From an uncultured bacterium (lineage in GTDB: Bacteria > Muiribacteriota > Ozemobacteria > Ozemobacterales > Ozemobacteraceae), in assembly GCA_964428355.1 (NCBI GenBank), contig CAYRYU010000010.1:39334-103333 (forward strand): DNA of 64,000 nucleotides, written 5' to 3'. Positions 5,353 through 43,078 of the stretch are shown in pieces (within the stretch, counting starts at the first letter, position 1; each line of letters opens with the position of its first letter). Under the pieces are notes generated by a model, which worked only from the letters and a program-made list of their open reading frames with translations, ran no database searches and was not told the DNA's origin. Position numbers and translations under genes: made by a program.

Positions 5353-8300
5353 TCAGTCCCCCCTTTCATTGATCCATGCGGTTGGGGTCGAAAGCCCTTG
5401 CCGGTTTCCGCTTCCGAGGTCGCTGATCTGCGAAAAGAAGCGGTCGGTGAAGTTGTTTGACCCCTCGAGCAGGAAATCCTGGAGGTCCTTTGCGGCCTGG
5501 TCCTTCATCGGGTGGCTGAGATTCTGGAAAACAAGGAACCTCTGGGTCAGAAAGCCTTTGTTCCAAAGGAGGTTCGGGCCGAACTCCTCGATGGTGCGTG
5601 CCAGCATCACGGGCCCGACCTTGCCCGCCAGATCCAGGGTGGCCAGCTTCCGGAGCTCCTCGCATTGGAAGAGAAACAGGGGTTTCCCCAGCGCCTCCAG
5701 CAGAATGTTCGCGCTCTTGGATGACGAGCCCCCCATTTCGACGGCGAGGTTGAAGCTCTGGACGAGGATCGGCTCGACCGTGAAGTTCGGGGCTCGGGCG
5801 GTCCGAAAAGCTTCCGCCAGCAACCCCGCGGCAAGGTCAGGGTTTCCGCGCCGGAAGGCGAGGCGTGCCTCGAGCAGTCTCTTCTCGAGCGGAAGCTGGT
5901 TTTCGATGTCGTCAAGAAACGGTCTGGCCCTGTCATCTCCCAGATCGGCGAATGCCTGCGCAAGAAGGGCAATCTCGACAGGATGGGTGGATGAAGCCCC
6001 ATCCTCGGGAAGGAAGCGGCGGACACCCTGGAGGTCACCGCCCAGAACGGCTTTCAAAGCCTGGATGTGTGGCGTCAGCGCGGGATCCTGGCTGTCGGGA
6101 AGCTGCTCGGGGTCCATTCCGCAGAAGAGCTGGATGAAAGGCTGAAGGCCCGTTTCATCGGGATCCAGGATTCCGTCCACCAGAGGTGGTTTGGACATCC
6201 CGAGCTGCCGGGCGGTGTTCCCGATGGTTTGGATGCCAACCGAATCAGGATTTCCCAGTGTCCTGGCGAAACCGTACTCGAGGATCATGTGATCGTCGGT
6301 GTTCAGGGTTTCGATCATTCTGGCCGGTTCACCCATCGTCCGAAGGAAGGAGGAGTTTGCCAGGTAGTTTCCGTATAGCCCCTCGGGTCCCCGGGCATGC
6401 CACGCTTTCCACATCGCTTCTTTGAACAGGGGAAGCTCCAGACGCTCCCCGACCTTGATCAGCGAATGCCGGATCGGATCGATCGAGCAGGTCAAGAGCA
6501 GATCGCAAGCGCTGGTCTGCCAGACCTCGACGTGCGGGAATACCGAGGAGACGGTGGCGAAGATGATCCCTATCGTTTCGGAATCGACCTCGTATGCCTG
6601 GACCCATTGGGAAAAAACTCCTCCCGGCCTGAGCCTGCCGATGACGGCCTGGTAGAATTCCCGTGTAAAAAGCGTGGAGACGCCTGCCCGGAAAGGGTTT
6701 GACGGTTCGGAAACAATCAGGTCGTATTTCCCGGGAGTGGTGAGAAGCACTTCGCGGGCATCTCCGAAGACGAGGTTGACCTTGGGATTCCGCAGGACCT
6801 CGCAGTTGATCTGGGAACACCGGGAAGCCACCTCCACGGTCCGCTCCTCCAGCTCGACTATGTCGACCTTTTCCATTCCAGGCACAGCTCCCAACCAGCC
6901 CCCGGTCGATCCGGTTCCCAGCCCGATCACGAAAGCCCGGCGGGGGTCGGGGTGCAGGATTGCTCCGACGATCCCGAGCATGATCTGCGTGCCGGCATCG
7001 CCCAGGGCGTTTCCGTCGATCTTCCCGTTGATGACGAAGGCAAGGCCGTTGGCGCAAGTCAGTCCCACGCAACTCTCCTTCCCATCGGCCTCCCAGATGA
7101 CGGATCGTTTTCGGAAGTTCACCCAGTTGCGGATCTGTGAAACCGTTTTCCCCGCAAGTTTTTCGCGGCCCGTTCCAATCTGGCTGTGGCGCCAAACCAC
7201 AGTGGGACCTTCGGCCGCAAGAAAGATCCCGACCAGGGCCAGGACTGCGATGGTTCCTGAGAGTCCCCGAACGGTTCTGCGCCCAGGGGATTCCGATATC
7301 GCCGTGAACAGGGAAAGCCCAGCGAGGCCCAGGACGGCCAGCTTCCAGCAGCCCGTCGCGGATGCCAGGGCGATGAGGCCAAACCCCCCCGCCAGCGATC
7401 CTGCAACCGCTCCGAGGGTGTTCGCGGCATACACGATTCCGACCTGTTGCGCGATCCCTTCTTTTCCGCGGCCCACTATTCCAAGCAGAAGAGGGAACTG
7501 GATCCCTGAAACGAAGGCTGCGGGAAGGATTACGATCGAAATGACCGCGTTCCAGCCGAGAATCTTTCCGAAAAATCCAAGTCCGTCCAATGGCTCCAGC
7601 AGACCTAGCAGGATGGCGACTCCATCCCCAAGCCAGAACGGGAAGGCAAGAGCCGCGGCCTCGAGCGCGCAGGTCAAGGAAAACCCGCGCCAGGTAGGTA
7701 TTCGCTCCTCGCTCCGAAAGGAGTATGCGAAACCTCCGAGGCCGATCCCCAACAGCGCTGAAGCCAGGACCATCCCGAAGGCGAAGACCGAACCTCCCAG
7801 CAAAGGCGCGAGCATTCTGTACCAGACAGTCTCCATCAGGAAGAAGGCGAACCCCGTCACGAATGCCGCGAAAACTGCGCTCCAGATCGAGGTTTCTTCC
7901 TTTTGGGAAGCACCCTGGTCCGGTTTCCCGGAAGGAAGCCCGGAGGCTTCCGCGGCTTGAGATGGGCTCACGGGAGTTTCGACGCCGGTTCCCCCGGCAG
8001 CTCGGGCGCAGAGTCCCACGAAGAGGTTGAACCCGGCCGCAAGGAACAGGGATCTCCTCAGACCGAACGTTTCCAGCAGCCAGAATGTGGTCAGTGAAGC
8101 TCCCAGGACCGCTCCAAGGGTGTTCGAACCATAGATGACGGCCGATCCCGTCCTCCCGCTGTCTTTGGAGGACTGCCCCGCTTTGAGCGCGGCAGGGAGG
8201 GTGCCTCCCATCAAAAATGTGGGGACTCCGAGAACGAGCGCTGAAAGCAGGCCACGCACCGCCGCACCTCCCGCAGACCCGAGGGTCGCGGTTCCCCCCA

Positions 8301-8601
8301 GCCAGAGGTAGACCGCCCGGACGCCCTCGAGGAGGAAGGGGGAAAGCATCGCTGAGGCGGCTATTCCCAGCTCGAGGTTTCCGTAGAGCCTGAGAGGGCT
8401 GGGACTGCGTTCGCCCAACCTTCCGAGAAACAGGCTCCCCAGTCCGAGGCCGGCCATGAAGATGGCGACCACGGCCGAGCATGCCGCGGTCGATGTCCCG
8501 AAAACGAGACGGAGCTCCTGGAACCAAACGACCTGGTAGATCAGGCCGCACATTCCGCTGAGGAACAGAAAGATGGAGGTCAGGACGAGGCCCGGTCTCA
8601 T
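5353..8601 (-). CDS. Fused MFS-type membrane domain / spermidine-synthase-like (PABS) protein with C-terminal helical-repeat region
   Basis: 1082 aa. About 500 aa of polytopic membrane segments (Gly/Ala/Leu-rich helices). A class-I methyltransferase/PABS-like core follows (VFVIGLGTGSTGGWL ... DIVELEERTVEVAS ... DLIVSEPSNPFRAGVSTLFTREFY ... GGVFSQW). Then about 350 aa of Leu/Ala-rich repeats. Confidence 0.7.
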   Translation of the reverse strand: MRPGLVLTSIFLFLSGMCGLIYQVVWFQELRLVFGTSTAACSAVVAIFMAGLGLGSLFLGRLGERSPSPLRLYGNLELGIAASAMLSPFLLEGVRAVYLWLGGTATLGSAGGAAVRGLLSALVLGVPTFLMGGTLPAALKAGQSSKDSGRTGSAVIYGSNTLGAVLGASLTTFWLLETFGLRRSLFLAAGFNLFVGLCARAAGGTGVETPVSPSQAAEASGLPSGKPDQGASQKEETSIWSAVFAAFVTGFAFFLMETVWYRMLAPLLGGSVFAFGMVLASALLGIGLGGFAYSFRSEERIPTWRGFSLTCALEAAALAFPFWLGDGVAILLGLLEPLDGLGFFGKILGWNAVISIVILPAAFVSGIQFPLLLGIVGRGKEGIAQQVGIVYAANTLGAVAGSLAGGFGLIALASATGCWKLAVLGLAGLSLFTAISESPGRRTVRGLSGTIAVLALVGIFLAAEGPTVVWRHSQIGTGREKLAGKTVSQIRNWVNFRKRSVIWEADGKESCVGLTCANGLAFVINGKIDGNALGDAGTQIMLGIVGAILHPDPRRAFVIGLGTGSTGGWLGAVPGMEKVDIVELEERTVEVASRCSQINCEVLRNPKVNLVFGDAREVLLTTPGKYDLIVSEPSNPFRAGVSTLFTREFYQAVIGRLRPGGVFSQWVQAYEVDSETIGIIFATVSSVFPHVEVWQTSACDLLLTCSIDPIRHSLIKVGERLELPLFKEAMWKAWHARGPEGLYGNYLANSSFLRTMGEPARMIETLNTDDHMILEYGFARTLGNPDSVGIQTIGNTARQLGMSKPPLVDGILDPDETGLQPFIQLFCGMDPEQLPDSQDPALTPHIQALKAVLGGDLQGVRRFLPEDGASSTHPVEIALLAQAFADLGDDRARPFLDDIENQLPLEKRLLEARLAFRRGNPDLAAGLLAEAFRTARAPNFTVEPILVQSFNLAVEMGGSSSKSANILLEALGKPLFLFQCEELRKLATLDLAGKVGPVMLARTIEEFGPNLLWNKGFLTQRFLVFQNLSHPMKDQAAKDLQDFLLEGSNNFTDRFFSQISDLGSGNRQGLSTPTAWINERGD

Positions 8602-8711: not shown

Positions 8712-11291
8712 ATGGACGAGAGCGAAAGAACACGTATCGTCGACGCCCCTGAATCGACGTTGAAGATTTCTCCGGGGGGCGGGAAAGGCGACGCGGAGAA
8801 GACCATTCTCGTTGGCGGGCAGGGCCCGGGCCCGAGTGTGAGCCCTGGAGCTCCCGGAACCGCACCCCTCCTCAAAGGATGGGACCTCGTCAGAAGGTTT
8901 CCCGCGACCGGCGGGGAGGCGGATGTTTTCCTCGTCAGGCGTGAAGGCCAACTGAGGATCCTCAAGCTCTACCGGTTGGGGATCAAGCCGAAAATGGAGG
9001 TCCTGGAGCGGCTTTCCCGTCTTTCCGGGGCACACCCGGATTTCTTCGTCCAGATTCTCGAACAGGGTCACCATCCCGATTCGAACCGGTTTTTCGAAGT
9101 GCAGGAGTATTTCCCGCTCGGAACCCTCCGGGAGTTGGCGGGCCAGCGGAAGCTGGCCGTGGATGAGGTCAAGCGGGTCATCGAGAAGCTCTCGAGAGCC
9201 CTGTTCGCGCTTCATGAGTCCGGAATCCTTCATCTTGACCTGAAACCCGCGAACATCCTCATCAGGAGCATTGAACCTCTCGACGTGGTCCTGACCGATT
9301 TTGGAATCGCCTCCATCCTGGACGAGGAATTCTCCAAGAAGATGACGGACATCAAGGGAACCAGCCTCTACCAGTCCCCGGAAAGCCTCTCCGGGATCGT
9401 GGGAGCGAAATCCGACTGGTGGTCCCTCGGAATCATCCTTCTGGAACTTTTGCAGGGGAAGCACCCCTTCGACGGCCTCCAACGCCAGGTGATCTATTAC
9501 CGCCTCACCACAGCGGGGATCCCGATCCCGACCTCTCTCGATCGTCGCTGGATCAACATCCTGAAAGGTTTCCTTACCAGGAACCCGGATATCCGATGGG
9601 GGACCTCGGAAGTCCGGCAGTGGCTCGAAGGAAGCGAAGTCCGAACCTTCTTCGACGACGAGATTCCGACGGGAGACGTCGAAGCCTTGACCGCGGGTTT
9701 TGACGCCCGGTTCAGGAAGCTCGAGGTTCCCTTTTCATTCCTGGGAAAGCGGTTTTTCAGTTTCGAGGAGCTCCTGAGAGCGTTCGCCGCCACCCCGGAA
9801 GGTTGGGTCCAGGCGAAGGTGCATATCGCCCGCGGTCAGATCGCCCGTTGGCTTGAGGATAACGGTGACCAGGAACGGGCGGACAAACTTTCGGGCCTTG
9901 TCGACTCGGAAAATGATCCCGACCGGATGTTGTTCAAGACCCTCTACACCTTTTTCCCGGAGCTCCCGCTCGTCTGGTATGGAAGAATCGTCGACCGCAG
10001 GGCGATTCTGGAGCTTTTCGCCAGGGTCTGCGAGTCCGAGGTCACCCCAGAGGAACAGAAGCTCCTGGACATCCTTTTCACTGGCGATCTCCTCAAGGAC
10101 CACCAGGCGCTGGCGGGGCAGACCCCTCCCGATCTGGAGGACCTCAACCGGTTTCTCCAGTCGATGGTCAGGACGGAACTGCGGAACTTCCCGACAGTGG
10201 AACGTGCGCGGATCCTGCTTTTCGTGCTGCAGAGCAGCTTTCTGCCCGAGAAGGCGTTTCCGTATCTCCAGAACGCCCTCTCGGGGGATCGCGAATTCCA
10301 GATGATCCTCCAGTCCGCGGGAGCCAAGGGATTTTCGGATTTCGCGCAAAAATCCGGCATCTGGAAGAAAGGAGACGATGTAGTCTGGAAGCTTGTTTCC
10401 GAATTGTATTCCCGCTCGAGTCCGGTCGCCACGCAAGCCCTCGATGTTCTTCCCACAGAGAGCGCGGCTCTCGCGACCGCGGTGGGAAAGGACCGGTCCC
10501 TGAGCGATCTGATCATGTCGATCGTCCTGCAGACAGCCATGGATTCAGACATGTTCGACCGGTGGCGGAATCTCCTGAAGAACCATCGGTGGCTCGACGC
10601 TCTCGCCCGAGCCGCTTACGGGGTTCCCGACGAGACCACCTCCGAGAACTTCCTCGAAAACAAGCTGGTGGCGAAGTCCCTTCTCGGGAGATGGGACAGG
10701 CTGCGTGAATACGTCCTTCCCCAGTTTTTCTATTCGCTCAAGGAGGGACGGATACTGCCTCCGGCGCAGATCCAGGTTGTGAGGCGCCTCCTTCCCCAGC
10801 CTTGGGTCCTTCCCCCCAAATTCGGGTCCTTGAGGGTCTGGGAGGACCTCCATGATCACGTTCAGGAGCTACCTCCCAATGGGTTGAGGATTTCCTGCTT
10901 CGACGATCTCGTTGCTGTCAAGAGACAGTTTGTACAGTCCGTAAGTCTCTGGTACCAGTCGCAGATCGGGACTCTCGGGGCCTTCCTGTGCTGCATGCTC
11001 CTGTACCACTACGAGAGGTTCGACTTCTTCGTCATCCTCGCGGGCTTGTGTTTCCTGATATCGACTTTCTGGCCCTGGGCCAGGGAGATCGACTGGCTTG
11101 CCAGGTTCCGTGGTTCGAAGCCCTTCGAGGCCGCGATCGATGACGCGATGGTCACGTCGAGCAAGTCTCCGAAACCCTTCAATCACCTCAACCGGGTCGG
11201 CTTCTTCATGCTCGTGTTGAGGCTTTCCTTCCTCCATCCCGATTTTCTCTACTTCGTTTCGGAAGCGTGGAAAATGTATTCGAAGACGTGA
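8712..11291 (+). CDS. Hanks-type Ser/Thr protein kinase (non-RD) with about 450-aa uncharacterised C-terminal module and terminal TM segments
   Basis: The ORF track starts at TTG 8673; I choose ATG 8712 (MDESERT). Kinase motifs present: LRILKLY (beta3 Lys), HLDLKPANIL (catalytic loop, Arg of HRD replaced by Leu), DFGIAS and SPESL. The Gly loop is degenerate (ATGGEADVF). The C-terminal module is shared with the 12855 and 16803 genes. It ends in the hydrophobic stretch GAFLCCMLLYHY...FVILAGLCFLISTFWPW. Confidence 0.8.
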   Translation: MDESERTRIVDAPESTLKISPGGGKGDAEKTILVGGQGPGPSVSPGAPGTAPLLKGWDLVRRFPATGGEADVFLVRREGQLRILKLYRLGIKPKMEVLERLSRLSGAHPDFFVQILEQGHHPDSNRFFEVQEYFPLGTLRELAGQRKLAVDEVKRVIEKLSRALFALHESGILHLDLKPANILIRSIEPLDVVLTDFGIASILDEEFSKKMTDIKGTSLYQSPESLSGIVGAKSDWWSLGIILLELLQGKHPFDGLQRQVIYYRLTTAGIPIPTSLDRRWINILKGFLTRNPDIRWGTSEVRQWLEGSEVRTFFDDEIPTGDVEALTAGFDARFRKLEVPFSFLGKRFFSFEELLRAFAATPEGWVQAKVHIARGQIARWLEDNGDQERADKLSGLVDSENDPDRMLFKTLYTFFPELPLVWYGRIVDRRAILELFARVCESEVTPEEQKLLDILFTGDLLKDHQALAGQTPPDLEDLNRFLQSMVRTELRNFPTVERARILLFVLQSSFLPEKAFPYLQNALSGDREFQMILQSAGAKGFSDFAQKSGIWKKGDDVVWKLVSELYSRSSPVATQALDVLPTESAALATAVGKDRSLSDLIMSIVLQTAMDSDMFDRWRNLLKNHRWLDALARAAYGVPDETTSENFLENKLVAKSLLGRWDRLREYVLPQFFYSLKEGRILPPAQIQVVRRLLPQPWVLPPKFGSLRVWEDLHDHVQELPPNGLRISCFDDLVAVKRQFVQSVSLWYQSQIGTLGAFLCCMLLYHYERFDFFVILAGLCFLISTFWPWAREIDWLARFRGSKPFEAAIDDAMVTSSKSPKPFNHLNRVGFFMLVLRLSFLHPDFLYFVSEAWKMYSKT

Positions 11292-11330
11292 GACCCGCCC
11301 TCGGCCGGTTGGCGTGCCTGATCCCCGGGG

Positions 11331-12077
11331 TCAGGTGGCGGAAACCTGCACCAGCATGAAACCGATGTTGTCTTTGCTCGTTTTCAGGGCTTCACGAAAC
11401 AGCAGCTCAGCCGTTTCCTCCGACTTGGGGAGTCCGAACCCCTCTTCCATCCGCTCCACCGGCACGGCACCCCAGAGCCCGTCGGAACATATAAGAAAAC
11501 GGTCTCCGGGCCGGGGTTGCAAGGGTCTGACGAAAACCTTCATCGGCTCGGAGTCTCCCCCGACCACGGCGGAGGTCACGATGTTCTGGGGAAGGTTGGC
11601 CGCAGGGATTCCTCCAGCCGAGGCTTCCTCCACCAGTGAATGGTCCTTCGTAAGCCTGTTGAGATACCCGCCCGTGACCTTGTAGACCCGGCAGTCACCC
11701 ACATTGAATACGAAGCTGTTCGGGCCGGCGAGGAAAAGCCCGGAAAGGGTGGTTCCAAGGCGGATATGTTTCGCTTCTGCGATCCGGTCGAGCCGGGCTT
11801 TCGCCTTCATGAGCAGGGGTTCGAACTGGGCAGGGGAGGTCAGGCTGCCGAACCCGTCCTTCAGGACCCCGAGGACCTCGCCGCTTGCCTCCTCCCCTGC
11901 CTCCTCCCCTCCCATCCCGTCGGCAACGACAAACCAGAGGGGGGAGCCTTCGAACTCCGTTCCTACAACCTTGTCCAGCGAGGTTTGGGAGATCACCTTG
12001 TCGAAGACCAGGAGAGAATCCTCGTTGTTCTTGCGGATCGTTCCGACATTCGTCAAAAAAAACGTCTTTACCTTCAC
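11331..12077 (-). CDS. PP2C-family Ser/Thr protein phosphatase
   Basis: GTG start at 12077 with AGGAGG 5 nt upstream. Motifs VADGMGGEEAGEEAS and ICSDGLWG are the metal-binding signatures of PPM/PP2C phosphatases (Stp/PrpC-like). Confidence 0.8.
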   Translation of the reverse strand: MKVKTFFLTNVGTIRKNNEDSLLVFDKVISQTSLDKVVGTEFEGSPLWFVVADGMGGEEAGEEASGEVLGVLKDGFGSLTSPAQFEPLLMKAKARLDRIAEAKHIRLGTTLSGLFLAGPNSFVFNVGDCRVYKVTGGYLNRLTKDHSLVEEASAGGIPAANLPQNIVTSAVVGGDSEPMKVFVRPLQPRPGDRFLICSDGLWGAVPVERMEEGFGLPKSEETAELLFREALKTSKDNIGFMLVQVSAT

Positions 12078-12104
12078 GATTCCTCCTTCCGGTTGCTCCC
12101 TGCC

Positions 12105-12815
12105 TCAGGACTCCTCCAAGATCTCGATCGTGACCTGGGCGGAAAGGCTCAAAACGTCACCGGGTTTGATGGCCTCCTTTGAAAGGGGGGCGAGGCGGCG
12201 GCCGTTGACGAAAGTCCCGTTGCCGCTTTCCAGGTCCTCCACGAACCAGGTTCCGGCGTCCCACGTGATCTTAAGATGCCTCCTGGAAACGATCTGGAAC
12301 TGGCCAAAAAGCTCCTGCCCAACGGCGTGACGTCCGAGGATGTCATCGGGCTGGATCTCGAACATCCGGTCGCCGAACTTGCAGGTGAGCTTCCGGGGCT
12401 GCTCTCTGACGGTCCTGCCGGAATCGGTGGATCCATCCGCAGGTTCACCTTGGGCGGGAGAAGAGGACGGTTTTCCCTTCTTCCCTTTCTTCTCCGACTG
12501 CGCCTCCACGGCTTTCGCCCTGGGCTGGATTCGCGGAGGCATCTGGCCCACCGCGATCCCGCTGATATCTGCCATGCAGAGGGCGCAGAAAAACTCCTCT
12601 GGCAGATTCGAATGTCCGCAGGACGGGCAGATTTTTATCGGACTCACGGATTCGGAATCCCTCTGAATTTCCGGGGGGGGCGCCCCCTGTCTTGAGGGAA
12701 TTCTATCGCGCACCGAAGGAATTTTCCAGTCAACCATCCTGGACAATTGCATCATGACACAGGTCACTCGTCGGCTCTTGACTTCGCCTTCGAATTCGGG
12801 CATTTTTCGTTCCAT
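12105..12815 (-). CDS. FHA domain protein with N-terminal C4 zinc-ribbon
   Basis: C-terminal GRHAVGQELFGQFQIVSRRHLKITWDAGTWFVEDLESGNGTFVNGRRL is a canonical FHA domain. Upstream lies the zinc-ribbon motif CPSCGHSNLPEEFFCALC, then a Lys/Ser/Pro-rich linker. The true start is probably internal: a GTG preceded by AGAGGGA just before the zinc-ribbon is plausible. It lies 27 bp upstream of the PP2C gene. Confidence 0.7.
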   Translation of the reverse strand: MERKMPEFEGEVKSRRVTCVMMQLSRMVDWKIPSVRDRIPSRQGAPPPEIQRDSESVSPIKICPSCGHSNLPEEFFCALCMADISGIAVGQMPPRIQPRAKAVEAQSEKKGKKGKPSSSPAQGEPADGSTDSGRTVREQPRKLTCKFGDRMFEIQPDDILGRHAVGQELFGQFQIVSRRHLKITWDAGTWFVEDLESGNGTFVNGRRLAPLSKEAIKPGDVLSLSAQVTIEILEES

Positions 12816-12854
12816 GGCCTTCCTGGAATTGTCTCCGTTCCTCAGGAGGTTCCG

Positions 12855-15116
12855 ATGGATTCTGGTTCCCGATCCACCCTTCCGCCCGGGCCGTCTGGAA
12901 CGGGGTTGGAGCGTCGGCTTTCCCCGCCCTTCGTCTTCCTGCGCATGGAGTTCGACACGCTCGAAGGCCTCCTAAAGGAGTTGACCACTTCCCCCGACAA
13001 ATGGAGCAGGGGGAAGGTCCTGATGAACCAGGGCCGGATCCGCGACTGGCTTCGGGAAGCCGGCGACGAGGAAAGAGCCCGGGTCGTCGATGGGGTGGCA
13101 GGTGGAGCGGGGGAAGGAGACCGCAAGCTCTTTCGGCTCATCCATTCGCTGAGCCCGTCCGCTCCCTTTTCCTGGCGTGGAAAACCCTTTTCCCGCGGGA
13201 TGCTGATGGATCTCCTGCGCCGCGGTTCGAGGGCGCAAGCCGGCGAAGATGATCAAGCGCTTCTGGAGCAGGTCTTCGGTGAGGGGATGTTCCGGGAGTA
13301 TCTGTCCCTGAAGAGCTCACTACCCGATGACATTGGGCCGCTGGTTGGATCCGCCCAGGCCATGAGAGCGTCCGAGATCGGTGGGATGCCCATTGCCGAG
13401 CTTTGCAGGCTTGTGCTGGCGATCGGAAACGGGATCCTGGGCCCGGCCGAACCTTTTCGCATACTTCGATCCGCTCTCACTGGGGATCCCGACGCCGCCT
13501 GGATCGTAGGCCTGGTGGGGAAGAACGGATTTTCCGCCTTCGCCGCAAAGAACGGGCTTTGGAGTGGAACGGACGACCCGGCGTGGCGGCTGCTGCCCGA
13601 CCTGGTCATGCCTGCAACGGTCGATCAGAAACTGGTAGGTCTCCTTTGTGAGGCGGGAGAAGCCCCGGTGAAGGCCCTGAGGGAGCTACCCGGATTCGAC
13701 CGTCTTCTTCGCGGGATCCTTCTTCGCACCCTCGGGGAGGCGGAGATAGCCCGGGATGATTTCCAGCTTCTCCCATCCTCTCCATGGTTCGACGACCTCC
13801 TCCGGGCCGCTTTCCAGGTTCCCGAGGGGAAGGGGGTCCGGGAATTCCTCATCGCCTACGTTTGCAGGAAAGAGATTCACCGGGACTGGGAAATCCTTGA
13901 CCCCTATCTCCTCCCTCCGTTCTTCAACGACTTCCGGAATGGAAAACCCGTAACGGAGAAGCAGGTCGAGATGATACGGGAAGTTCTCAAGAACCCCGGG
14001 ATCCTCATTCCCACCACGGCGGTGGTTTCCTCCTGGAAAGGGCTTCAGAGCTTTCTCGAGGGGGAATCGGATTCGGCGACGGTTGTTGAATGCTTTGAAG
14101 ACCTTGCGATCATCAAGAAGGCCTACGCCCGGAAAAGGGAAAGATACTTCCAGGTGATGGCCGCCTCCGTTGGATTGGGTGTCGCGTCCATCTCGGCGAT
14201 GCTTTTGGGCCCAACTTATCCTCCAATCGTGATCTCGGGTCTTTTGTTTGCTTCTGGGGTCCTGATTCCGGGACTGGTCTGGATCCCCTATTTCCGGAGG
14301 CTTTGGGAGCGGTTCCGGCCCAAAGGGGGGACCGAGGCCGGGAATGCCTTCGACCCTCCTCACTCCTCTCCCTGGAACATCTTCACGGTCACGGGTATGG
14401 CCTTCTGCATTTCGGGCTTCGTTCTATACGGTGTATTTCTCGGATTCCTGCTCACGATGACTCACGACTCCTCCGTTTTCCTGCTCAGGACAGGTTGTGA
14501 GCTCCGGCTCATCGTGCCGGGCATGGATCCGGTTCTTCATTCCTTCCAGCAGCGAAACCCTGAAGCCCTGAGGTATCTTCTCCACCGGTTCGGGGAAAAC
14601 TCCGCTCTTGCCGGTGAGGAGCGCAAAAGGCAGCTTCTCTCGGAGGCAATTGCGGGAAAGTGGAAACCGGGAATCGAGATCCTTCTTTCCTCGACCAATC
14701 TTTCCCAGAAACGGAATGGCGACTGGAGGATTCTTTTCGGTGCCATCCGGTCCAAGGATGTCGAGATCGTCAGGGAGGTCATGAGATGGGGAATCGATCT
14801 CAAGCTCGTCAGTCCGGTCGAAGATAGCGCACTCCACGAGGCGGTCATGCAGGGGGCTCCCGAGATGGTTCGGTTCCTGCTCGGGAAAGGCCTCGAGGTG
14901 AATGCGGTTAACGTTGAGGGCCAGACCCCCCTTCATTATTGCCTTCCCCTTGCGGGTCGGAACCCCTCCCAGGCGGTCGAGGTTGCCCGGATTCTCCTTG
15001 CTGCGGGCGCTGACAAAAGACTCCGGGACCGTAGGGGGCAGACGCTCCTCGGCTGGATCGAGCTGACCCAGCGGAGAGATAACGGAGGAATACTTTTGAA
15101 AGTCCTGGAAGAATGA
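12855..15116 (+). CDS. Ankyrin-repeat protein carrying the same uncharacterised module as the two kinases, with central TM helices
   Basis: The ORF track starts at TTG 12747. ATG 12855 (MDSGSRS) has AGGAGG 7 nt upstream. The N-terminal roughly 430 aa align with the kinase C-terminal modules: WSRGKVLMNQGRIRDWLREAG, GFSAFAAKNGLWSGTDDPAW, LLPPFFNDFRNGKPV. There are two or three predicted TM helices (GLGVASISAMLLGPTYPPIVISGLLFASGVLIPGLVWIPYF; FTVTGMAFCISGFVLYGVFLGFLL). The C-terminus has at least 3 ankyrin repeats (ALHEAVMQGAPEMVRFLLGKGLEVNAVNVEGQTPLHYC...ILLAAGAD). Confidence 0.7.
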   Translation: MDSGSRSTLPPGPSGTGLERRLSPPFVFLRMEFDTLEGLLKELTTSPDKWSRGKVLMNQGRIRDWLREAGDEERARVVDGVAGGAGEGDRKLFRLIHSLSPSAPFSWRGKPFSRGMLMDLLRRGSRAQAGEDDQALLEQVFGEGMFREYLSLKSSLPDDIGPLVGSAQAMRASEIGGMPIAELCRLVLAIGNGILGPAEPFRILRSALTGDPDAAWIVGLVGKNGFSAFAAKNGLWSGTDDPAWRLLPDLVMPATVDQKLVGLLCEAGEAPVKALRELPGFDRLLRGILLRTLGEAEIARDDFQLLPSSPWFDDLLRAAFQVPEGKGVREFLIAYVCRKEIHRDWEILDPYLLPPFFNDFRNGKPVTEKQVEMIREVLKNPGILIPTTAVVSSWKGLQSFLEGESDSATVVECFEDLAIIKKAYARKRERYFQVMAASVGLGVASISAMLLGPTYPPIVISGLLFASGVLIPGLVWIPYFRRLWERFRPKGGTEAGNAFDPPHSSPWNIFTVTGMAFCISGFVLYGVFLGFLLTMTHDSSVFLLRTGCELRLIVPGMDPVLHSFQQRNPEALRYLLHRFGENSALAGEERKRQLLSEAIAGKWKPGIEILLSSTNLSQKRNGDWRILFGAIRSKDVEIVREVMRWGIDLKLVSPVEDSALHEAVMQGAPEMVRFLLGKGLEVNAVNVEGQTPLHYCLPLAGRNPSQAVEVARILLAAGADKRLRDRRGQTLLGWIELTQRRDNGGILLKVLEE

Positions 15117-15186
15117 CTTCGAAAGGGGCGCCGGGGACGGTTGCAATCGCGGTCGAAATTCCTTATCGTGTCATGGGAGGGTGGTA

Positions 15187-16806
15187 ATGAGCACTGCCAT
15201 AGTTTTCGTTCCCGCCGCCAGCTCTTTCTTCCCCGGTGCCGCGGCAGCGATGACCGGGGGGGTGGGCTTTCCCATCCTGCTTGGCGCTGCCCTCGGCCTG
15301 TTGATTTTGAGCCGCGTCATGGAAGAGGCAGGGAAGGCGGAGTGTTCTTGCGGCAGGCAGAACAGGGACTCCCTGAACGCCATGTTCCGCCAGGTCGAGG
15401 CTTCCGTTCAGAAGGTCGTTTCCGAGGTTCTCGAGCGGGCGGGCCGTACTCCGCTGAGCAATCGCAGCCGCGAAGCCCTCCAGCGCGAGATCGAGCTGAT
15501 CCGTGGGACAATGATTCCCAAGTGCCTTTCCGATCTTCGGGACGGTGTTCTCGGCGAACGCGAGGTCAGGGCGGTCGTTGATAAGCTCGAAGGGCTCGAC
15601 CTGCTCCTGGTCCAGCACCGCAGCGGGTTCACCCAGTCAAGGTCACGCGCCGATTTCCTGTCCGGGAAAATCGCAAGTCTCCTCCCCGATCTGACCTCGC
15701 GTTACTCGGGATCGGGGAAAGAGGATGCGCTGAAGGCCAGATTCGAGGAAATCCGGGGCATTCCGGAAGAGGATATCGAGGAAAGGATCGGTCTTCTCGA
15801 AGAGTTCCTTGGCCGGATCGAATGTATCTCCGACGGGAAGGTCCTGAGGAAGGTGGTGGACAGGCTTCTCGCCGGAACGCGGATTCCCGGTGTCGCCGCG
15901 ACCGGCCCGGGACCGGCCCCCATTCTCCCCCCTGACGAAGGCCTCGACCGGATGACACGGCTGAAGACCCTTCTCAACGACCTTGCCTTCTACCACCAGA
16001 AGCTTGGGGCCGAGTTCCCCGAACTGCTCGATGACCAGATGCAGAAGCTGGTTTCCGAGGCAAGCGGTTCCGACCATCTCCAGCGGGTTTCCGCGGTCCG
16101 GGACCAGGTGAAGCTGGTCTACCAGAAAGCCCATTCCCGGATGGTCCTTTCATCCTTCTTCAAGGACCGCCTGATCGCCCTTCGCGCAACCCTTTCCCCC
16201 GACAATCCCCTCACCGGGAGACTTGGAAGGGCGATCGAGGAAGCCGTGGTCGAGCGCGGGCTTTTCCAGGAGCTTTCCGAAGCGGTGGAAAAGCATCACC
16301 TCGGGGAGTTCGATGAGGAGATGAAGCTGGGCATCAGGGAAAAGGTTTCTTCCGCTCTCGATCGTCTTAATTACGTGGTGATCGATGATGACGAGCGGAA
16401 GGAGATTGTAGACCGCCTCTCCGAATCGAGGATGGCCCTTCTCAACACCAAATACGATGATTACAAACTGCTTCTTCGCATGGGGAAGGATGATGCCCTT
16501 TCGATCCGGTTGGTCAGGGTCGTTCAGAATCTGAAGGAACGGGAGAACATCTCCGAGTTCCAGAAACAGAAGGATACTGACCTCAAGAACGAGTGGTGTC
16601 ACAACGTCGATCTGCTTCGCGAGCACCTCGAGGCAATGGGAATCATCGTCAACCAGAAACTCCGCCTCGAGGACGATGTCCAGTATCTTACCATCGAGCA
16701 GCTTGAACAGCAGAAGGTCGATACCTCCCGGTTGAGAAAAACCACCCCCGATGCGGTCAAGAAGGGCCAGGCGCGACAAAGGAAGCGCGGGGAAAAGAGC
16801 GGATGA
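15187..16806 (+). CDS. Uncharacterised protein with N-terminal hydrophobic anchor and long alpha-helical region
   Basis: ATG 15187 with GGGAGG 6 nt upstream; the ORF track lists GTG 15181. N-terminus MSTAIVFVPAASSFFPGAAAAMTGGVGFPILLGAALGLLILS is a TM/signal segment. The remaining roughly 480 aa are Glu/Leu/Arg/Lys-rich with no motif I recognise. Its stop overlaps the start of the kinase at 16803 (ATGA). Confidence 0.55.
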   Translation: MSTAIVFVPAASSFFPGAAAAMTGGVGFPILLGAALGLLILSRVMEEAGKAECSCGRQNRDSLNAMFRQVEASVQKVVSEVLERAGRTPLSNRSREALQREIELIRGTMIPKCLSDLRDGVLGEREVRAVVDKLEGLDLLLVQHRSGFTQSRSRADFLSGKIASLLPDLTSRYSGSGKEDALKARFEEIRGIPEEDIEERIGLLEEFLGRIECISDGKVLRKVVDRLLAGTRIPGVAATGPGPAPILPPDEGLDRMTRLKTLLNDLAFYHQKLGAEFPELLDDQMQKLVSEASGSDHLQRVSAVRDQVKLVYQKAHSRMVLSSFFKDRLIALRATLSPDNPLTGRLGRAIEEAVVERGLFQELSEAVEKHHLGEFDEEMKLGIREKVSSALDRLNYVVIDDDERKEIVDRLSESRMALLNTKYDDYKLLLRMGKDDALSIRLVRVVQNLKERENISEFQKQKDTDLKNEWCHNVDLLREHLEAMGIIVNQKLRLEDDVQYLTIEQLEQQKVDTSRLRKTTPDAVKKGQARQRKRGEKSG

Positions 16807-19394
16807 CCCCAGTGGATGACAACGAAAAGACCCGGATACTCGTTGATCCTGCCGCGCCGAGGTCAGGCGACGAGGACCTTCCCGATGAAAGCCACCCCAC
16901 CGGGCCGGGAACCGGGGCCACGGGTGGTTCCGGCACCGGTGGGACCTTCCGGGGCTGGAGTATTGTCCGGAATTTTCCCGCCCAGGGTGGGGAAGCCGAT
17001 ATTTCCCTCATCGAGAAGGCGGGGGAGCAGCGGATCCTCAAGCTCTACAGGTACGGTATCACACCGAAAAAGGAAGTGTTCGAGGCTGTAGCGTCGCTCG
17101 GGGTCAAGCACCCCGCAGGCTTCGTCAGGCTTTTCGAGTTCGGTCTCGACCCCGGAACCAACTGCTTTTTCGAGATCGACGAGTTCGTTTCCGGGGGAAC
17201 GCTCGCGGACCATCTGGTCTCCGGGCGCCTCTCCGAGGACGAGATCGAAGCCCTCTGCCGGCAACTGGTTCCCTCCCTCGAAGCGCTTCACGAGCATGGA
17301 ATTCTGCACCTCGACCTGAAACCCGGAAACCTGCTCGTCCGGAACAGGGACCCCCTCGAAGTCGTCCTCTCGGATTTCGGCCTTTCCTCGATCTATGACG
17401 CGGCTCTTTCCCAGAAATTCACCCAGACCAAGGGGACCAGCTTGTACCAATCTCCGGAAAGTGTTACTGGAGCGGTGAACCCGAAATCGGACTGGTGGTC
17501 GTTCGGGATCATGGTCATGGAACTTCTGATGGGCAGGAACCCCTTCGATGGCTTGCAGGCACAGGTGATCTTGTACCAGCTGACCACCCAGGGGGTGGAG
17601 ATTCCCCAAACGGTCTCCGGCCGATGGCGGAACCTCCTCATGGGCTTGCTGACCCGGAATCCAGAAAAACGCTGGGGCGGGGAACAGGTCCGCGCCTGGT
17701 TGGGCGGAGCGACGGTCGAAACCGGGTATCAGGAGGAGATGTCGCAAGCCAGGGAAAAGCCGTCCGCGTCAACCTTTTCAGCTTCCTCGCAGTACCGGCG
17801 TCTGGGAGTGCCCTTTACGTTCCGCGGTGTCGCCTTTAACGCCCTCGAAGACCTGGCTGGGGCGATGATCGCCTCGAGGGATGCATGGGAGGACGGGAAA
17901 GCCGATGTGGCGCGGGGAAAGCTCGCCGAGTGGCTCGAGCAGAACGGCGATAGCGATCGCGCGCGGCAGGTCCGGGGGTTGATGGATGAATCCCCAGATC
18001 CGGATCAGCTTCTGTTCAGGTTTGCGATCTATTTTCGTGCCGATCTTCCTTTCGTCTGGAGGGGCGTCCCCCTGGACGATGAGCAGTTCCGGGGGCTTCT
18101 GAAAAGTTACTCCCGGGACCTCGATCCTGGAGACAAATTCCTCGTGGAAGGGGTTTTTTCCGGGGAGCTCTTCCAGGAGTATGTGAAACTGACCGGAGGC
18201 ACCCTCGGAAAGGTCGACCCGTTTCTCAGGATCGCCAAGGGCATGAAAGGGACCGACCTCGAGAAGGAGCCCGTTTCGGCGCGGGTGGAGATTCTCCGGC
18301 GGGCGATAGACGGGGACTTCGCCGGAAGCAGGGCACTTTCCACACTGAAGGTTGCCCTCGGCGGTGCAGGGCATGCAGCCGAAGAAATCTTCCTGATGAT
18401 CCAGAAGAAGGGGTTCAACACATTCGCCCAGAAAGCTGCCTTGTGGCAGCCAGGGGACCAGGACCTCTGGAACATGGTCATGAAGGTCTTCCTGAAGAGC
18501 GATCATCTCAGGAACCTGAACTTCGCGACCTTCTTCCAACACTCCGAATCGGTTCTCGCCGCTGCCAGGAAAGACCCCACGATCAGGGATTTCATCGTCC
18601 GCGTTTTTGGAAGGGCCAACATCGATCTTGGCCTGGTAAAGCAGATCCAGGATTTTTCCGAAATCCAGCCCTGGGTCGAACCTTTGATCCGTTCGGTCTA
18701 CAATCTTCCATCCGGCGAGAAACTCAAGATCTGTCTTGGCAACCTCATGGTGGCCGCCCCCCTCAACGCCAGGTGGGACGAGATATCGGGCCGATACATC
18801 ATCCCGCCTTTCCTGAACGACCTCCGGAACGGCAAGGTCATCTCGCAGGGAAACCTGAAACTTGCCCGACAGGTGATCGACCAACCTGATCTCCTTCCCC
18901 TCAAGTCGCCCGATTTTTCCAACTGGGCCGAGTTCGTGAGTCTCATTCAAACCCCAGCCGAGATCAACCCCGAGTCGATCGAGTATCTCGATTTCCTTCG
19001 CCGGGAAAGGGACCGCCTTTCCATGGGCCAGCGCAGGACATGCTTCGAAAGCATCGTTCGATGGGTGATCTACCTCCTTGCTGGTTTTTTCCTGCTCTCC
19101 CTGACCTCTCCCCCCCGTCGATACAGTGGCGATGCACGCGAGAGAAGTTGCTACGCCAATATGCGGACGATTCTCGGGGCGGTCGAGATGTACAACATGG
19201 ATCATTCCCAGATGATGAGCGGTGTCGAGGATCCCGATACGTTGAACACGCTCCTGAGGTCGAACTACCTTCGTAATCAGATCACGAGGCCTGTTCCCGG
19301 GTGCCGATACTCCAATGACGGCGATCTGACCGGCTTGGGGGCGGTAACCTGCGAGATTCACGGGACCGTGGATGACCGTAGCACCAACCGCTGA
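16803..19394 (+). CDS. Hanks-type Ser/Thr protein kinase (non-RD) paralog with shared C-terminal module, TM helix and extracytoplasmic tail
   Basis: Motifs: AQGGEADISLI...QRILKLYRYG, HLDLKPGNLLV, DFGLSS, SPESV. The C-terminal module is homologous to the 8712 and 12855 proteins: GFNTFAQKAALWQPGDQD, IIPPFLNDLRNGKV. A TM segment (WVIYLLAGFFLLSLTSPP) follows. The 90-aa tail beginning RERSCYANMRTILGAVEMYNMDH resembles the post-helix segment of GspG/DUF1559-type pseudopilins. Confidence 0.8.
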   Translation: MTPVDDNEKTRILVDPAAPRSGDEDLPDESHPTGPGTGATGGSGTGGTFRGWSIVRNFPAQGGEADISLIEKAGEQRILKLYRYGITPKKEVFEAVASLGVKHPAGFVRLFEFGLDPGTNCFFEIDEFVSGGTLADHLVSGRLSEDEIEALCRQLVPSLEALHEHGILHLDLKPGNLLVRNRDPLEVVLSDFGLSSIYDAALSQKFTQTKGTSLYQSPESVTGAVNPKSDWWSFGIMVMELLMGRNPFDGLQAQVILYQLTTQGVEIPQTVSGRWRNLLMGLLTRNPEKRWGGEQVRAWLGGATVETGYQEEMSQAREKPSASTFSASSQYRRLGVPFTFRGVAFNALEDLAGAMIASRDAWEDGKADVARGKLAEWLEQNGDSDRARQVRGLMDESPDPDQLLFRFAIYFRADLPFVWRGVPLDDEQFRGLLKSYSRDLDPGDKFLVEGVFSGELFQEYVKLTGGTLGKVDPFLRIAKGMKGTDLEKEPVSARVEILRRAIDGDFAGSRALSTLKVALGGAGHAAEEIFLMIQKKGFNTFAQKAALWQPGDQDLWNMVMKVFLKSDHLRNLNFATFFQHSESVLAAARKDPTIRDFIVRVFGRANIDLGLVKQIQDFSEIQPWVEPLIRSVYNLPSGEKLKICLGNLMVAAPLNARWDEISGRYIIPPFLNDLRNGKVISQGNLKLARQVIDQPDLLPLKSPDFSNWAEFVSLIQTPAEINPESIEYLDFLRRERDRLSMGQRRTCFESIVRWVIYLLAGFFLLSLTSPPRRYSGDARERSCYANMRTILGAVEMYNMDHSQMMSGVEDPDTLNTLLRSNYLRNQITRPVPGCRYSNDGDLTGLGAVTCEIHGTVDDRSTNR

Positions 19395-19504: not shown

Positions 19505-20848
19505 ATGAAAAAGCTGTTTTGCCTCGTCCTTTGCGTTGCGGTTCTGGGAGGAATGATCGTAATGAGCGGTTGTGGCGGCGGAAGCGGCGGAGGAATCCTC
19601 GGTGCCGTTGCCGGTGTCCTGATCATCGCGGCTGTTGCTTCTTCCGGTGGCGCGGGCGCGGCCGTCTTTGCGGCATCGGTTCGTGAGCGGCCCCAGTCGG
19701 CCATCCTCTCGGCCTATCAGACCACGAGATACGTCGCCCGGATCAAGATCGACGGGGACGTCGCCACCATCACCAACGCCGTGAACTACGTCGATGCCAA
19801 TACACTCCAGGTCAATAACGTCCAGGTCTCCACCACGCAGGGCTCCCACCAGGTTCTCGTCGAGTTCCTTCCCGCCAGTAACACCTCTTCATCCGATCCT
19901 TATTTCAAGGGGTATTTCACCGCAGACTTCGGGCTGGCGGCCTCCATCGCGTCTCCCACAATCGGAGCAACGCAGACCGCCCAGGCCCTGGCCTACGAAT
20001 ACTGGCGCAACAAATCGGGGGCAACCGGGAAGACGATCAACGAATTCCTTGCACAGAATCCCGATCTGGCAACTTTGACCGCCCAGGTCATCAACGACCT
20101 CCAACCTGCTCTTGGGACGCCCACCGCCACTTTCCAGTGGTCGACCACCACCACCCAGACCGCTTCCGCGGTCGCCAATGCCACCGTCGTCCCCGGCGGC
20201 ACCGAACAGAAATGGGATTGCTACACCTACGCTCCGGAGAACATGACCGGCGTTTTCAACACCATCAACTTCGCCTGGAACGGGAACACCGGAACCATAA
20301 ACTATTCCGATACCATGCCGGGCGGGAATACGAACTCCGGTCAGGGGAACGCGACCCGCTCTGGGACAACCTTCACCGGATCCGTCAACGAGACCCACAA
20401 TTCCAGCCAGGGAATCCTCCTCTGGAAGGGAACTTCCACGATGGCGGGGAGATATGATTCCGATTCACAGATCACCATGAATGCCACCTCGACGTCGGCC
20501 AACGATTCCCCCCAACAGGGAACCTGGGGCTATCAATCCAAGATGCTCCTCCAGACCGGAACCGCGGCCAACGTCTCCGGAACGTGGTCATGCAACGCTC
20601 CGGTATTCACGATGACCCTTCAGCAGGCTGGAACGACGGTTACCGGCCAGACGACGATCCCCGGGGGCGTCACCGTCCTCGGGTCCGTTTCGAACAACAT
20701 TCTGACCTTGACCACCTCCTCAACCCAGCAGCCCGATTATCACGAGACCTGGAAGTTCCTCGTCGTGGGAACACAGCTTATGGGGCATTACATCGTTCAG
20801 GGAACCAATCCCCCGCAGATGGGGGCCTTGAGGCTCAATCAACCCTGA
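19505..20848 (+). CDS. Lipoprotein, Thr/Ser/Asn/Gly-rich secreted protein
   Basis: Signal peptide MKKLFCLVLCVAVLGGMIVMSGC with a lipobox-like VMSGC. A Gly-rich linker follows, then a Thr/Asn/Ser/Gly-rich beta-type sequence. Strong RBS and promoter upstream, terminator downstream. Confidence 0.65.
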   Translation: MKKLFCLVLCVAVLGGMIVMSGCGGGSGGGILGAVAGVLIIAAVASSGGAGAAVFAASVRERPQSAILSAYQTTRYVARIKIDGDVATITNAVNYVDANTLQVNNVQVSTTQGSHQVLVEFLPASNTSSSDPYFKGYFTADFGLAASIASPTIGATQTAQALAYEYWRNKSGATGKTINEFLAQNPDLATLTAQVINDLQPALGTPTATFQWSTTTTQTASAVANATVVPGGTEQKWDCYTYAPENMTGVFNTINFAWNGNTGTINYSDTMPGGNTNSGQGNATRSGTTFTGSVNETHNSSQGILLWKGTSTMAGRYDSDSQITMNATSTSANDSPQQGTWGYQSKMLLQTGTAANVSGTWSCNAPVFTMTLQQAGTTVTGQTTIPGGVTVLGSVSNNILTLTTSSTQQPDYHETWKFLVVGTQLMGHYIVQGTNPPQMGALRLNQP

Positions 20849-20900: not shown

Positions 20901-20981
20901 CGTTTCCCTTTGTCGGATTCTGGGGTAGAATTCTGAGGAAATCCAGGTATGTACAACAAGAATCCATGATTGGGGAATGGC

Positions 20982-39165: not shown

Positions 39166-40059
39166 TCACTCGAGGAACAGTTCCGGGGTGATGACCGAAT
39201 TTCCCTGGTACGGATGGGGCGCCTGGAATGAGTGGATCATCCTGAAACGGCACCGGGAGGGGACTCCCACATCACGCATGATCAGCATTCCCGGGTCATA
39301 CCATCGGCCGGTCTCCCGAAACTGCCGGAATCGCCAGGCAACGATATCGGTCACGTCGATCGTGACCTCGGCGGATCCGGATGCGGGAAGAGTCGCCGTA
39401 GAATGGGGTTCATACGAGAAATCCCCCCCGGTCGTTTCCCATGGCATCTCTCTCGTTGCCATGAACCAGGTGCATCCCCGATCGTATGACTGATGGCGTC
39501 CCCACTTTCCGTTCCCTTCCTCGAACCGTCGGGCCAGAGGGTATACGACGATAGGAACCGGTTCCCCGCAATCCGGTCCTGGGGCGAGGCGCAGGACGAG
39601 TGTCGCCCTTTCGGGGATGAACTCCGTGATCGGGATTCCGGAATCGCGGAAGGCTTTGGGAATATCGAAGCAGATCAGGTAACGAAGGCCGTTCGAGGAA
39701 TAATAGGAACCGACCGGGCCGGAAGGGTCGGCTCCGGAATTCTGCTCCGCGGCCTGGGAAGGATGTCTGTCGTTGGGGCTCCGGATGAAGGCGTCGATGC
39801 CCTCCCTGACAACCACCTGACCTTGATGGGATCGCTCCGGAATTGTCGGCCAGGAAATTCCGCGGAGACAGTTCCAGCAGGTCCTGTCCATTTCGCTTAC
39901 GGGCGCGGAACAGAAAGAACAAGAGGCTCCCCAGGCAGTCGCGATTCCCAGGTAAAGGAGGAGAACGACGACGATGGGAGCAGCGGAAATCCAGGTTCCG
40001 GGTCGTGAGAACCCGCTCTCCGGCTGAGAAAGGGTTTTCGGGAATCCCGGGGTGTTCAA
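39166..40059 (-). CDS. Membrane-anchored protein with DNRLRE-like beta-sandwich domain
   Basis: TTG start; the stop of the upstream HEAT gene overlaps it (TTGA). N-terminal TM helix PIVVVLLLYLGIATAWG. ATLVLRLAPGPDCGEPVPIVVYPL...GNGKW and SAEVTIDVTDIVAWRF resemble the conserved strands of DNRLRE-type carbohydrate-associated domains. Confidence 0.4.
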   Translation of the reverse strand: MNTPGFPKTLSQPESGFSRPGTWISAAPIVVVLLLYLGIATAWGASCSFCSAPVSEMDRTCWNCLRGISWPTIPERSHQGQVVVREGIDAFIRSPNDRHPSQAAEQNSGADPSGPVGSYYSSNGLRYLICFDIPKAFRDSGIPITEFIPERATLVLRLAPGPDCGEPVPIVVYPLARRFEEGNGKWGRHQSYDRGCTWFMATREMPWETTGGDFSYEPHSTATLPASGSAEVTIDVTDIVAWRFRQFRETGRWYDPGMLIMRDVGVPSRCRFRMIHSFQAPHPYQGNSVITPELFLE

Positions 40060-42929: not shown

Positions 42930-43078
42930 CTCGATCGCACCTCTTGTCGAAGTGAAAGTATAGCACATATCCCGAGAGGGGGCACCGCCTTTCCGGTGGG
43001 ACCTCCCGGGTTCCGCAATGCTTGACCGTTTTCTTCCCGACAGCTAGAATCACCCCATCGATTAACGGGAGGTTTGTC

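Follow-up and report, generated by a model that had tools for sequence, protein, structure and literature searches.

The stretch of DNA analysed here, which we call the window, is 64 kb long in total (contig CAYRYU010000010.1 of GenBank assembly GCA_964428355.1, positions 39,334 to 103,333) and comes from an uncultured bacterium of the family Ozemobacteraceae. At 8712-19394 it carries a locus of six genes, three of which encode paralogous proteins, A, B and C, that share a region of ~420 residues. We find that this region, hereafter the module, is a genuine domain that is so far uncatalogued and matches no solved structure. Our own reading of the open reading frames (ORFs) agrees with independent gene calls on two Logan contigs that carry the same locus. 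The six genes are:

8712-11291, plus strand: gene A, 859 aa; Hanks-type Ser/Thr kinase, then module, then membrane anchor
11331-12077, minus strand: PP2C-type phosphatase, 248 aa; Pfam PP2C_2
12105-12815, minus strand: FHA-domain protein, 236 aa; N-terminal CxxC...CxxC zinc-ribbon-like stretch
12855-15116, plus strand: gene B, 753 aa; kinase-less module, then transmembrane (TM) segments, then ankyrin repeats
15187-16806, plus strand: gene D, 539 aa; N-terminal hydrophobic segments and a long region without a family match
16803-19394, plus strand: gene C, 863 aa; Ser/Thr kinase, then module, then a single TM helix and a pilin-like ectodomain

An earlier note on this DNA had named two kinases, an ankyrin protein and nearby FHA and PP2C genes, and each of these assignments corresponds to a Pfam match above the curated cut-off. 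The Pkinase profile (PF00069) scored 108.2 bits in A and 115.4 bits in C against a cut-off of 31.7, and the FHA domain scored 54.4 bits against 20.7. In B, the ankyrin repeats at aa 627-725 were matched by both Ank_2 (49.4 bits against 27.3) and Ank (41.2 against 21.1). The phosphatase assignment is marginal, with PP2C_2 at 28.1 bits against a cut-off of 24 and the PP2C profile just below its own (19.5 against 20.3). The N-terminus of the FHA protein contains a zinc-ribbon-like motif (CPSC...CALC) with a weak Pfam DZR match; these N-terminal 130 aa are missing from its 103-aa counterpart at L010, a syntenic locus described below. The FHA gene and gene B are divergent and only 39 bp apart, so the start codon of one of the two may be miscalled. 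The stop codon of D and the start codon of C overlap by 4 bases, and B, D and C therefore look like one operon. We propose that protein D is translationally coupled to C and is a further membrane partner in the system. D itself had no Pfam, NCBIfam or PADLOC match; a short, low-complexity-like match to the PDB sequence of Rpn5 (E 0.004) was disregarded.

In both A and C the Pkinase match starts only at profile position ~70, which indicates a divergent kinase N-lobe. Since the translations keep the beta3 Lys (in RILKLY), the HLDLKPxN motif (HLDLKPAN / HLDLKPGN), DFG (TDFG / SDFG) and SPE (YQSPES), kinases A and C are probably active. Both are of the non-RD type, with Leu replacing Arg in the catalytic loop, and their Gly-rich loop is atypical (GGEADV/I).

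The module is present once in each of the three paralogues, and a profile built from 24 family members found exactly these three copies in a six-frame translation of the window:

9678-10952, plus strand: module copy in A, aa 323-747 (hmmsearch envelope)
12855-14150, plus strand: module copy in B, aa 1-432
17760-19028, plus strand: module copy in C, aa 320-742

By BLASTP, A and B are 27% identical over 470 aa (E 1.4e-60; A 335-800 / B 20-481) and B and C 27% identical over 462 aa (E 4.5e-46; B 14-462 / C 326-776), while the alignment of A with C spans both kinase and module (37% identity over 708 aa, E 2.7e-160). A three-way alignment of the modules has 59 invariant columns over ~420 residues. 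The earlier note had proposed that the three regions are related and had set E above 1e-3 as the level at which that idea should be dropped; pairwise E values of 1e-46 to 1e-60 lie well past this limit, and all the motif strings it listed are found in the translations. Its estimate of ~450 aa for the length holds only if the membrane anchor is counted, the module itself being ~420 aa.

The same note had recognised no named domain in this region, and neither did our searches of domain catalogues and structures. The module copies of the window, taken as isolated halves, gave no Pfam-A match even at E up to 10. In a Pfam scan of 56 full-length relatives, the matches (Pkinase, Ank, TPR, PEGA and similar) all lay outside the module, and a scan of 39 isolated copies of its N-terminal sub-domain, defined below, returned nothing significant (best E 0.01, in scattered single matches). 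NCBIfam and PADLOC profiles matched kinase or ankyrin parts only. Among PDB sequences there was no match to the module with profiles of 3, 24 or 39 sequences (E<=10), and no solved structure matched most of the module by sequence profile or, using Foldseek, by fold. One lead, and a lead only, is OrfY of Thermoproteus tenax (PDB 4cso), which covers only a fifth of the module; it was recovered neither by Foldseek nor by the three sequence profiles against the PDB at E<=10, and a literature search found no paper on OrfY or 4cso.

We modelled the module with AlphaFold (AF2 for the A copy). The three window copies alone gave a predicted local distance difference test score (pLDDT) of 76.6, and the A copy with 24 family members reached a pLDDT of 91.8 and a predicted template modelling score (pTM) of 0.80. 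In the model, a beta-hairpin (residues 18-25) is followed by five helices and by a second hairpin at an invariant LP..W.G motif, after which come about twenty more helices and two short strand pairings. The module is thus predicted to be an all-alpha, confidently folded domain. When its four quarters were compared with each other by hhalign, probabilities were at most 2%, indicating that the module is not a repeat protein. Taken as a whole, the modelled fold appears to be without a solved counterpart visible to Foldseek and PDB-sequence profiles.

Relatives were sought with a module-only profile, which HMMER ran exhaustively against 1.84 billion cluster representatives. This yielded 301 relatives at E<=1e-3, 108 at E<=1e-10 and 20 at E<=1e-30. 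A word-indexed protein search was blind to the family, returning protein A alone with the 3-sequence alignment and nothing with the 24-sequence alignment. Among 185,579 GTDB species representatives, a pattern derived from the 3-sequence alignment gave 144 matches, none of them confirmed, and a hand-made degenerate pattern (WLE.NGD-16aa-PD..hF) gave none. About 24 representatives hold the whole ~420-aa module, which nearly always starts at residue ~270-365, right after the kinase, and has one to four hydrophobic segments behind it. Over 100 other proteins contain only profile positions ~15-165, again nearly always directly after a kinase (start at ~aa 300-350), and continue into TPR, Ank, PEGA or polytopic membrane regions; a few carry this part without a kinase or as tandem copies (P0035, P0057). 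The module is therefore composite, consisting of an N-terminal 'post-kinase' sub-domain of ~110-150 aa, made up of the first beta-hairpin, the five helices and the second hairpin, and a remainder of ~270 residues. The N-terminal sub-domain is widespread, occurring in Firmicutes, Archaea and candidate phyla, and the remainder belongs to a small clade known from metagenomes only. Clusters in the family are tiny, with 1-3 members each. Named members of the wider set come from metagenome-assembled genomes (MAGs) of Erysipelotrichia, Tissierellales and Methanospirillum, and their annotations go no further than protein kinase, TPR protein or hypothetical protein. The relatives P0035, P0057, P0062 and P0027, proteins from Firmicutes and Methanospirillum MAGs, carry the N-terminal sub-domain in TPR, PEGA and polytopic combinations, some of them in tandem.

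As the earlier note had read from the sequence, each module in the window is followed by one to three hydrophobic helices, and a Kyte-Doolittle scan placed them as follows:

10959-11249, plus strand: anchor of A; TM hairpin at ~aa 751-790 and a third, weaker segment at aa 829-846
14145-14468, plus strand: anchor of B; hydrophobic segments at aa 431-455, 456-480 and 507-538, the third being 32 aa long
19038-19373, plus strand: TM helix and Cys-rich ectodomain of C; helix at aa 746-771 of 863, in the last ~115 residues; pilin/pseudopilin-like

The anchors of A and B align with each other. In B the first two segments form a hairpin with 6 Lys/Arg residues before TM1 and 5 after TM2, which fits a cytoplasmic module. 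From this distribution of positive charge, together with the kinase on one side of the module and the TM segments on the other, we predict that the module is cytoplasmic.

The anchor of C is of another kind. Its tail contains an invariant motif, CYANMR..LGA.EMYNMD (CYANMR..LGAVEMYNMD in C itself), with further conserved Cys, His and Gly residues. A profile of the tail detected it in the window with an E of 3.5e-44, and tails of this type were present in 9 of the 150 family members listed and in two more proteins of the fetched loci. Against PDB sequences, the best match of the tail profile was GspG (E 0.011), followed by geopilin and PilE1 (E 0.3-1.4); these matches are marginal. The GspG alignment runs from the hydrophobic helix into '...ALDMYKLDNS'. 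Precomputed ComGC_C matches in relatives are weak or faint, and isolated pilin-like tails had no Pfam match. The relative P0007 keeps LTLSEWLIICMIVGVLAAIAVPNF, a near-canonical pilin alpha1-N segment in which the Glu is present and Gly(-1) absent. Like type IV pilins and the pseudopilins of type II secretion systems (T2SS; GspG, ComGC), the anchor of C appears to have a hydrophobic alpha1-N-like helix continuing into 'AREK.C..N.R.I..A.E.Y..D' and a small Cys-containing globular domain after the helix. Unlike them, it has ~745 residues of kinase and module before the helix rather than a short leader. The helix of C is thus internal, outside the definition of a class III signal peptide, and none of the relatives inspected has a Gly(-1) cleavage site, Q or P preceding 'LTL' instead. 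With an internal helix and no such site, C-type kinases seem to carry, as a fusion, a pilin-like anchor that is uncleavable. In a neighbour-joining tree of the modules, which is rough and has no support values, the pilin-tailed proteins form one clade.

Two loci with pilin-tailed kinases have neighbours worth recording. In L004, which comes from the same samples as the window, a pilin-tailed kinase and module gene (P0005, 9161-11614) lies between the rpoA-rplQ and rplM-rpsI ribosomal gene groups, and two unannotated proteins, one of 313 aa and one of 841 aa, are encoded beside it. P0005 may be a further paralogue, either from the genome of the window or from a related one. In L006 (6175-12173), the kinase P0007 stands beside a 1349-aa Kelch beta-propeller protein and small genes, one of which has a weak match to GspH, a pseudopilin. 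This context may connect pilin-tailed kinases with pseudopilin genes.

We read the gene context at eight loci. There are three module genes in the window and two adjacent ones in each of L010, L007, L009 and L006; at L011 the contig stops within a second kinase, and pairing is probable. L010, from an unrelated sample, repeats the order of the window: A-like kinase, PP2C, FHA, D-like gene and C-like kinase. Identities to the window proteins are 48% for A over its full length, 49% for PP2C, 35% for the FHA part and 39% for C, and the D homologue (510 aa, 33% identity, E 1e-92) occupies the same position. Since A resembles its L010 counterpart more than it resembles C, the duplication that gave A and C predates the split of the two lineages, and both copies have been kept side by side since. 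D or a D-like gene always lies immediately upstream of the C-type kinase, and D is probably a dedicated partner of that kinase. Kinase-less copies of the module occur in B and in a 554-aa protein at L006 that is equal to C residues 317-857, and both adjoin kinase-bearing copies. Two relatives, P0036 and P0049, combine kinase, module, two TM segments and ankyrin repeats in one polypeptide. In the module tree B falls with the A-type clade, far from P0036 and P0049, and the ankyrin fusion therefore seems to have arisen twice.

Across 24 sequences, 35 columns are conserved at a level of at least 70%, and only two of these, E29 and D81, are polar, the others being W, L, F, G, P or A. With conserved residues almost all W/L/F/G/P, the alignment has the pattern expected of a structural or interaction domain and suggests that the module is probably not an enzyme. 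The reading that we favour, tentatively and at a little short of an even chance, is that the module acts on the cytoplasmic side, next to the membrane, as a scaffold or regulatory platform on which the paralogous kinases come together with the ankyrin adaptor. The earlier note, which had described a membrane-anchored module in a kinase, FHA and PP2C setting, had offered scaffolding as one of its suggestions. We agree on the setting and come down on the side of scaffolding as well, given that the conserved positions are structural rather than catalytic and that the genes recur in adjacent pairs.

From the homology, architecture and gene pairing described above, we infer how such a complex might be assembled and how phosphorylation might flow within it. 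The module would keep the kinase domain close against the inner side of the membrane, and the adjacent paralogues A, C and B, perhaps with D, would associate through like-with-like module contacts. B would recruit clients through its ankyrin repeats. The kinases would phosphorylate Thr residues inside the complex, where the zinc-ribbon/FHA protein may read the phospho-Thr marks and PP2C may remove them.

Several points weigh against this reading. It calls for protein-protein contacts among A, B, C and D that we infer, and the 27-37% identity among the paralogous modules fits independent sensors as well as hetero-oligomers. Two of the eight loci, L003 (only 5.5 kb) and L004, have a single module copy. 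B is missing from the syntenic L010, which places the ankyrin adaptor outside the core, and FHA and PP2C genes stand beside the kinases in only two of the eight loci. B also has a third hydrophobic segment, and its ankyrin repeats may or may not be cytoplasmic.

Low identity between paralogues and single-copy loci are what would be expected under the main rival, in which the module is a cytoplasmic sensor of a ligand or of membrane state that regulates its own kinase in cis, and the paralogues act independently and are adjacent merely by tandem duplication. Since A and B are almost without extracytoplasmic sequence, a signal would have to be read in the cytoplasm or the membrane. The range of C-terminal partners that the N-terminal sub-domain takes (TPR, Ank, PEGA and TM bundles), and its occasional tandem arrangement, likewise resemble sensor or adaptor domains. 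However, the module has no conserved polar pocket residues, and kinase-less copies such as B and the 554-aa L006 protein, always found beside a kinase-bearing copy, would make no sense as cis-regulators. In addition, the adjacency of A-type and C-type genes is older than the split between the window and L010 lineages and has been kept. On balance we consider regulation in cis unlikely, though it is the alternative that fares best.

The earlier note had further suggested that the module might be a 'receiver' for phospho-signalling, that is, a phospho-acceptor that is phosphorylated by the kinases and then docked by the FHA protein. FHA and PP2C genes are indeed embedded between module genes in the window and in L010, and juxtamembrane regions of PknB-type bacterial Ser/Thr kinases are autophosphorylation and FHA-docking sites, so by analogy the same could hold here. 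Nevertheless, the 24-sequence alignment has no Ser/Thr column conserved at 70% or more, and at the Thr of the consensus 'TLEEL' the window copies read S, T and A. The region is also predicted, with confidence, to be a folded helical domain and not a disordered linker, and FHA and PP2C are absent from six of the eight loci. This suggestion is therefore not supported, and we think a phospho-acceptor role very unlikely.

A kinase-based anti-phage defence cassette with the module as sensor or effector is extremely improbable and was rejected, because the PADLOC matches of A and C (mad6, PD-T4-6 and MkoA, E 1e-22 to 1e-42) and the sub-cut-off NCBIfam matches (MADS6 and PglW) are confined to the generic kinase domain (~95-325) and lie far under the NCBIfam cut-offs (75 against 460 bits), B, D and FHA have no defence-specific match and PP2C one weak match (PDC-M21C, E 2.7e-4), the neighbours are housekeeping or metabolic genes, and no partner genes of those systems were found among the ORFs scanned.

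Two known systems share the logic of the locus. Like the actinobacterial PknA/PknB, PstP (PP2C) and FhaA/FhaB cluster, it has two adjacent membrane-anchored Hanks-type kinases, one PP2C phosphatase and an FHA protein, and its kinases have a kinase domain predicted to be cytoplasmic, a juxtamembrane segment and a TM anchor. Unlike PknB, in which a short, mostly unstructured juxtamembrane linker leads to extracellular PASTA domains, A and C have a 420-aa folded helical domain and no PASTA, neither PASTA nor VWA being matched by Pfam in these proteins. The NCBIfam PknB_PASTA_kin profile reached 94 bits against a cut-off of 450, and only on the kinase part. The cassette in the window also adds the kinase-less ankyrin paralogue B and protein D, and among the ORFs scanned we detected neither RodA nor PbpA. 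The second parallel is the PpkA, PppA and Fha1 triad of type VI secretion systems (T6SS), which likewise combines a membrane Ser/Thr kinase, a PP2C phosphatase and an FHA reader; the Agrobacterium case of the T6SS threonine-phosphorylation pathway is treated in PMC3953482. In contrast to A and C, PpkA has a periplasmic VWA-type domain, and no T6SS structural genes were found among the larger window ORFs scanned with Pfam. The locus belongs to neither the PknA/PknB nor the PpkA system. The kinase/FHA/PP2C logic is known, and what is new is the attached domain and the anchor of C.

The window holds other genes of note outside the locus. Directly upstream of kinase A and divergent from it, 5353-8601 (minus strand) encodes a 1082-aa protein with a spermidine-synthase-like domain only in its middle, at aa 540-694, the rest being unassigned. 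Downstream of C, a 447-aa ORF (19505-20848) has a signal resembling that of lipoproteins (…MSGCGGGS), then a hydrophobic stretch rich in Gly and Ala, and no family match. At 20970-23744 lies a protein resembling phosphoenolpyruvate (PEP) synthase, whose best named relatives are 63-70% identical and come from Candidatus Riflebacteria / Ozemobacteraceae MAGs; the organism of the window is accordingly Riflebacteria-like. Further away, 40056-42968 (minus strand) encodes a 970-aa protein that consists of little else than HEAT repeats (HEAT_2, 387 bits) and has C-terminal TPRs, and 57485-61834 (plus strand) a 1449-aa protein whose only match is a marginal DUF6079. No tRNA genes were found across the 64 kb, and a literature search on Riflebacteria protein kinases or FHA proteins found nothing relevant.

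The module and the pilin-like anchor also allow a bolder proposal, which we regard as quite unlikely. Together they would define a new class of bacterial Ser/Thr kinase that inserts an uncleavable pilin-like helix and ectodomain into the inner-membrane pool of pilins or pseudopilins, or into the platform of a type IV pilus or T2SS, and reports the state of that machinery by Thr phosphorylation. The novel-fold module would then serve as a cytoplasmic hetero-oligomerisation platform coupling C to the hairpin-anchored A, B and D as well as to FHA and PP2C, the reader and the eraser.

What defines a bacterial Hanks-type kinase is for the most part the set of domains joined to its catalytic core, since these decide what it senses and which proteins it phosphorylates. 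The impact of the module is modest for now, because the kinase/FHA/PP2C logic is well known and the family is rare and found in metagenomes only. Its N-terminal sub-domain could be deposited as a new family entry. Testable hypotheses on membrane-proximal kinase complexes follow from the recurrent pairing of paralogues, from the copies without a kinase and from the ankyrin fusions that seem to be independent, and the pilin-like anchor of C hints that Thr phosphorylation may be connected with pilus or secretion machinery.

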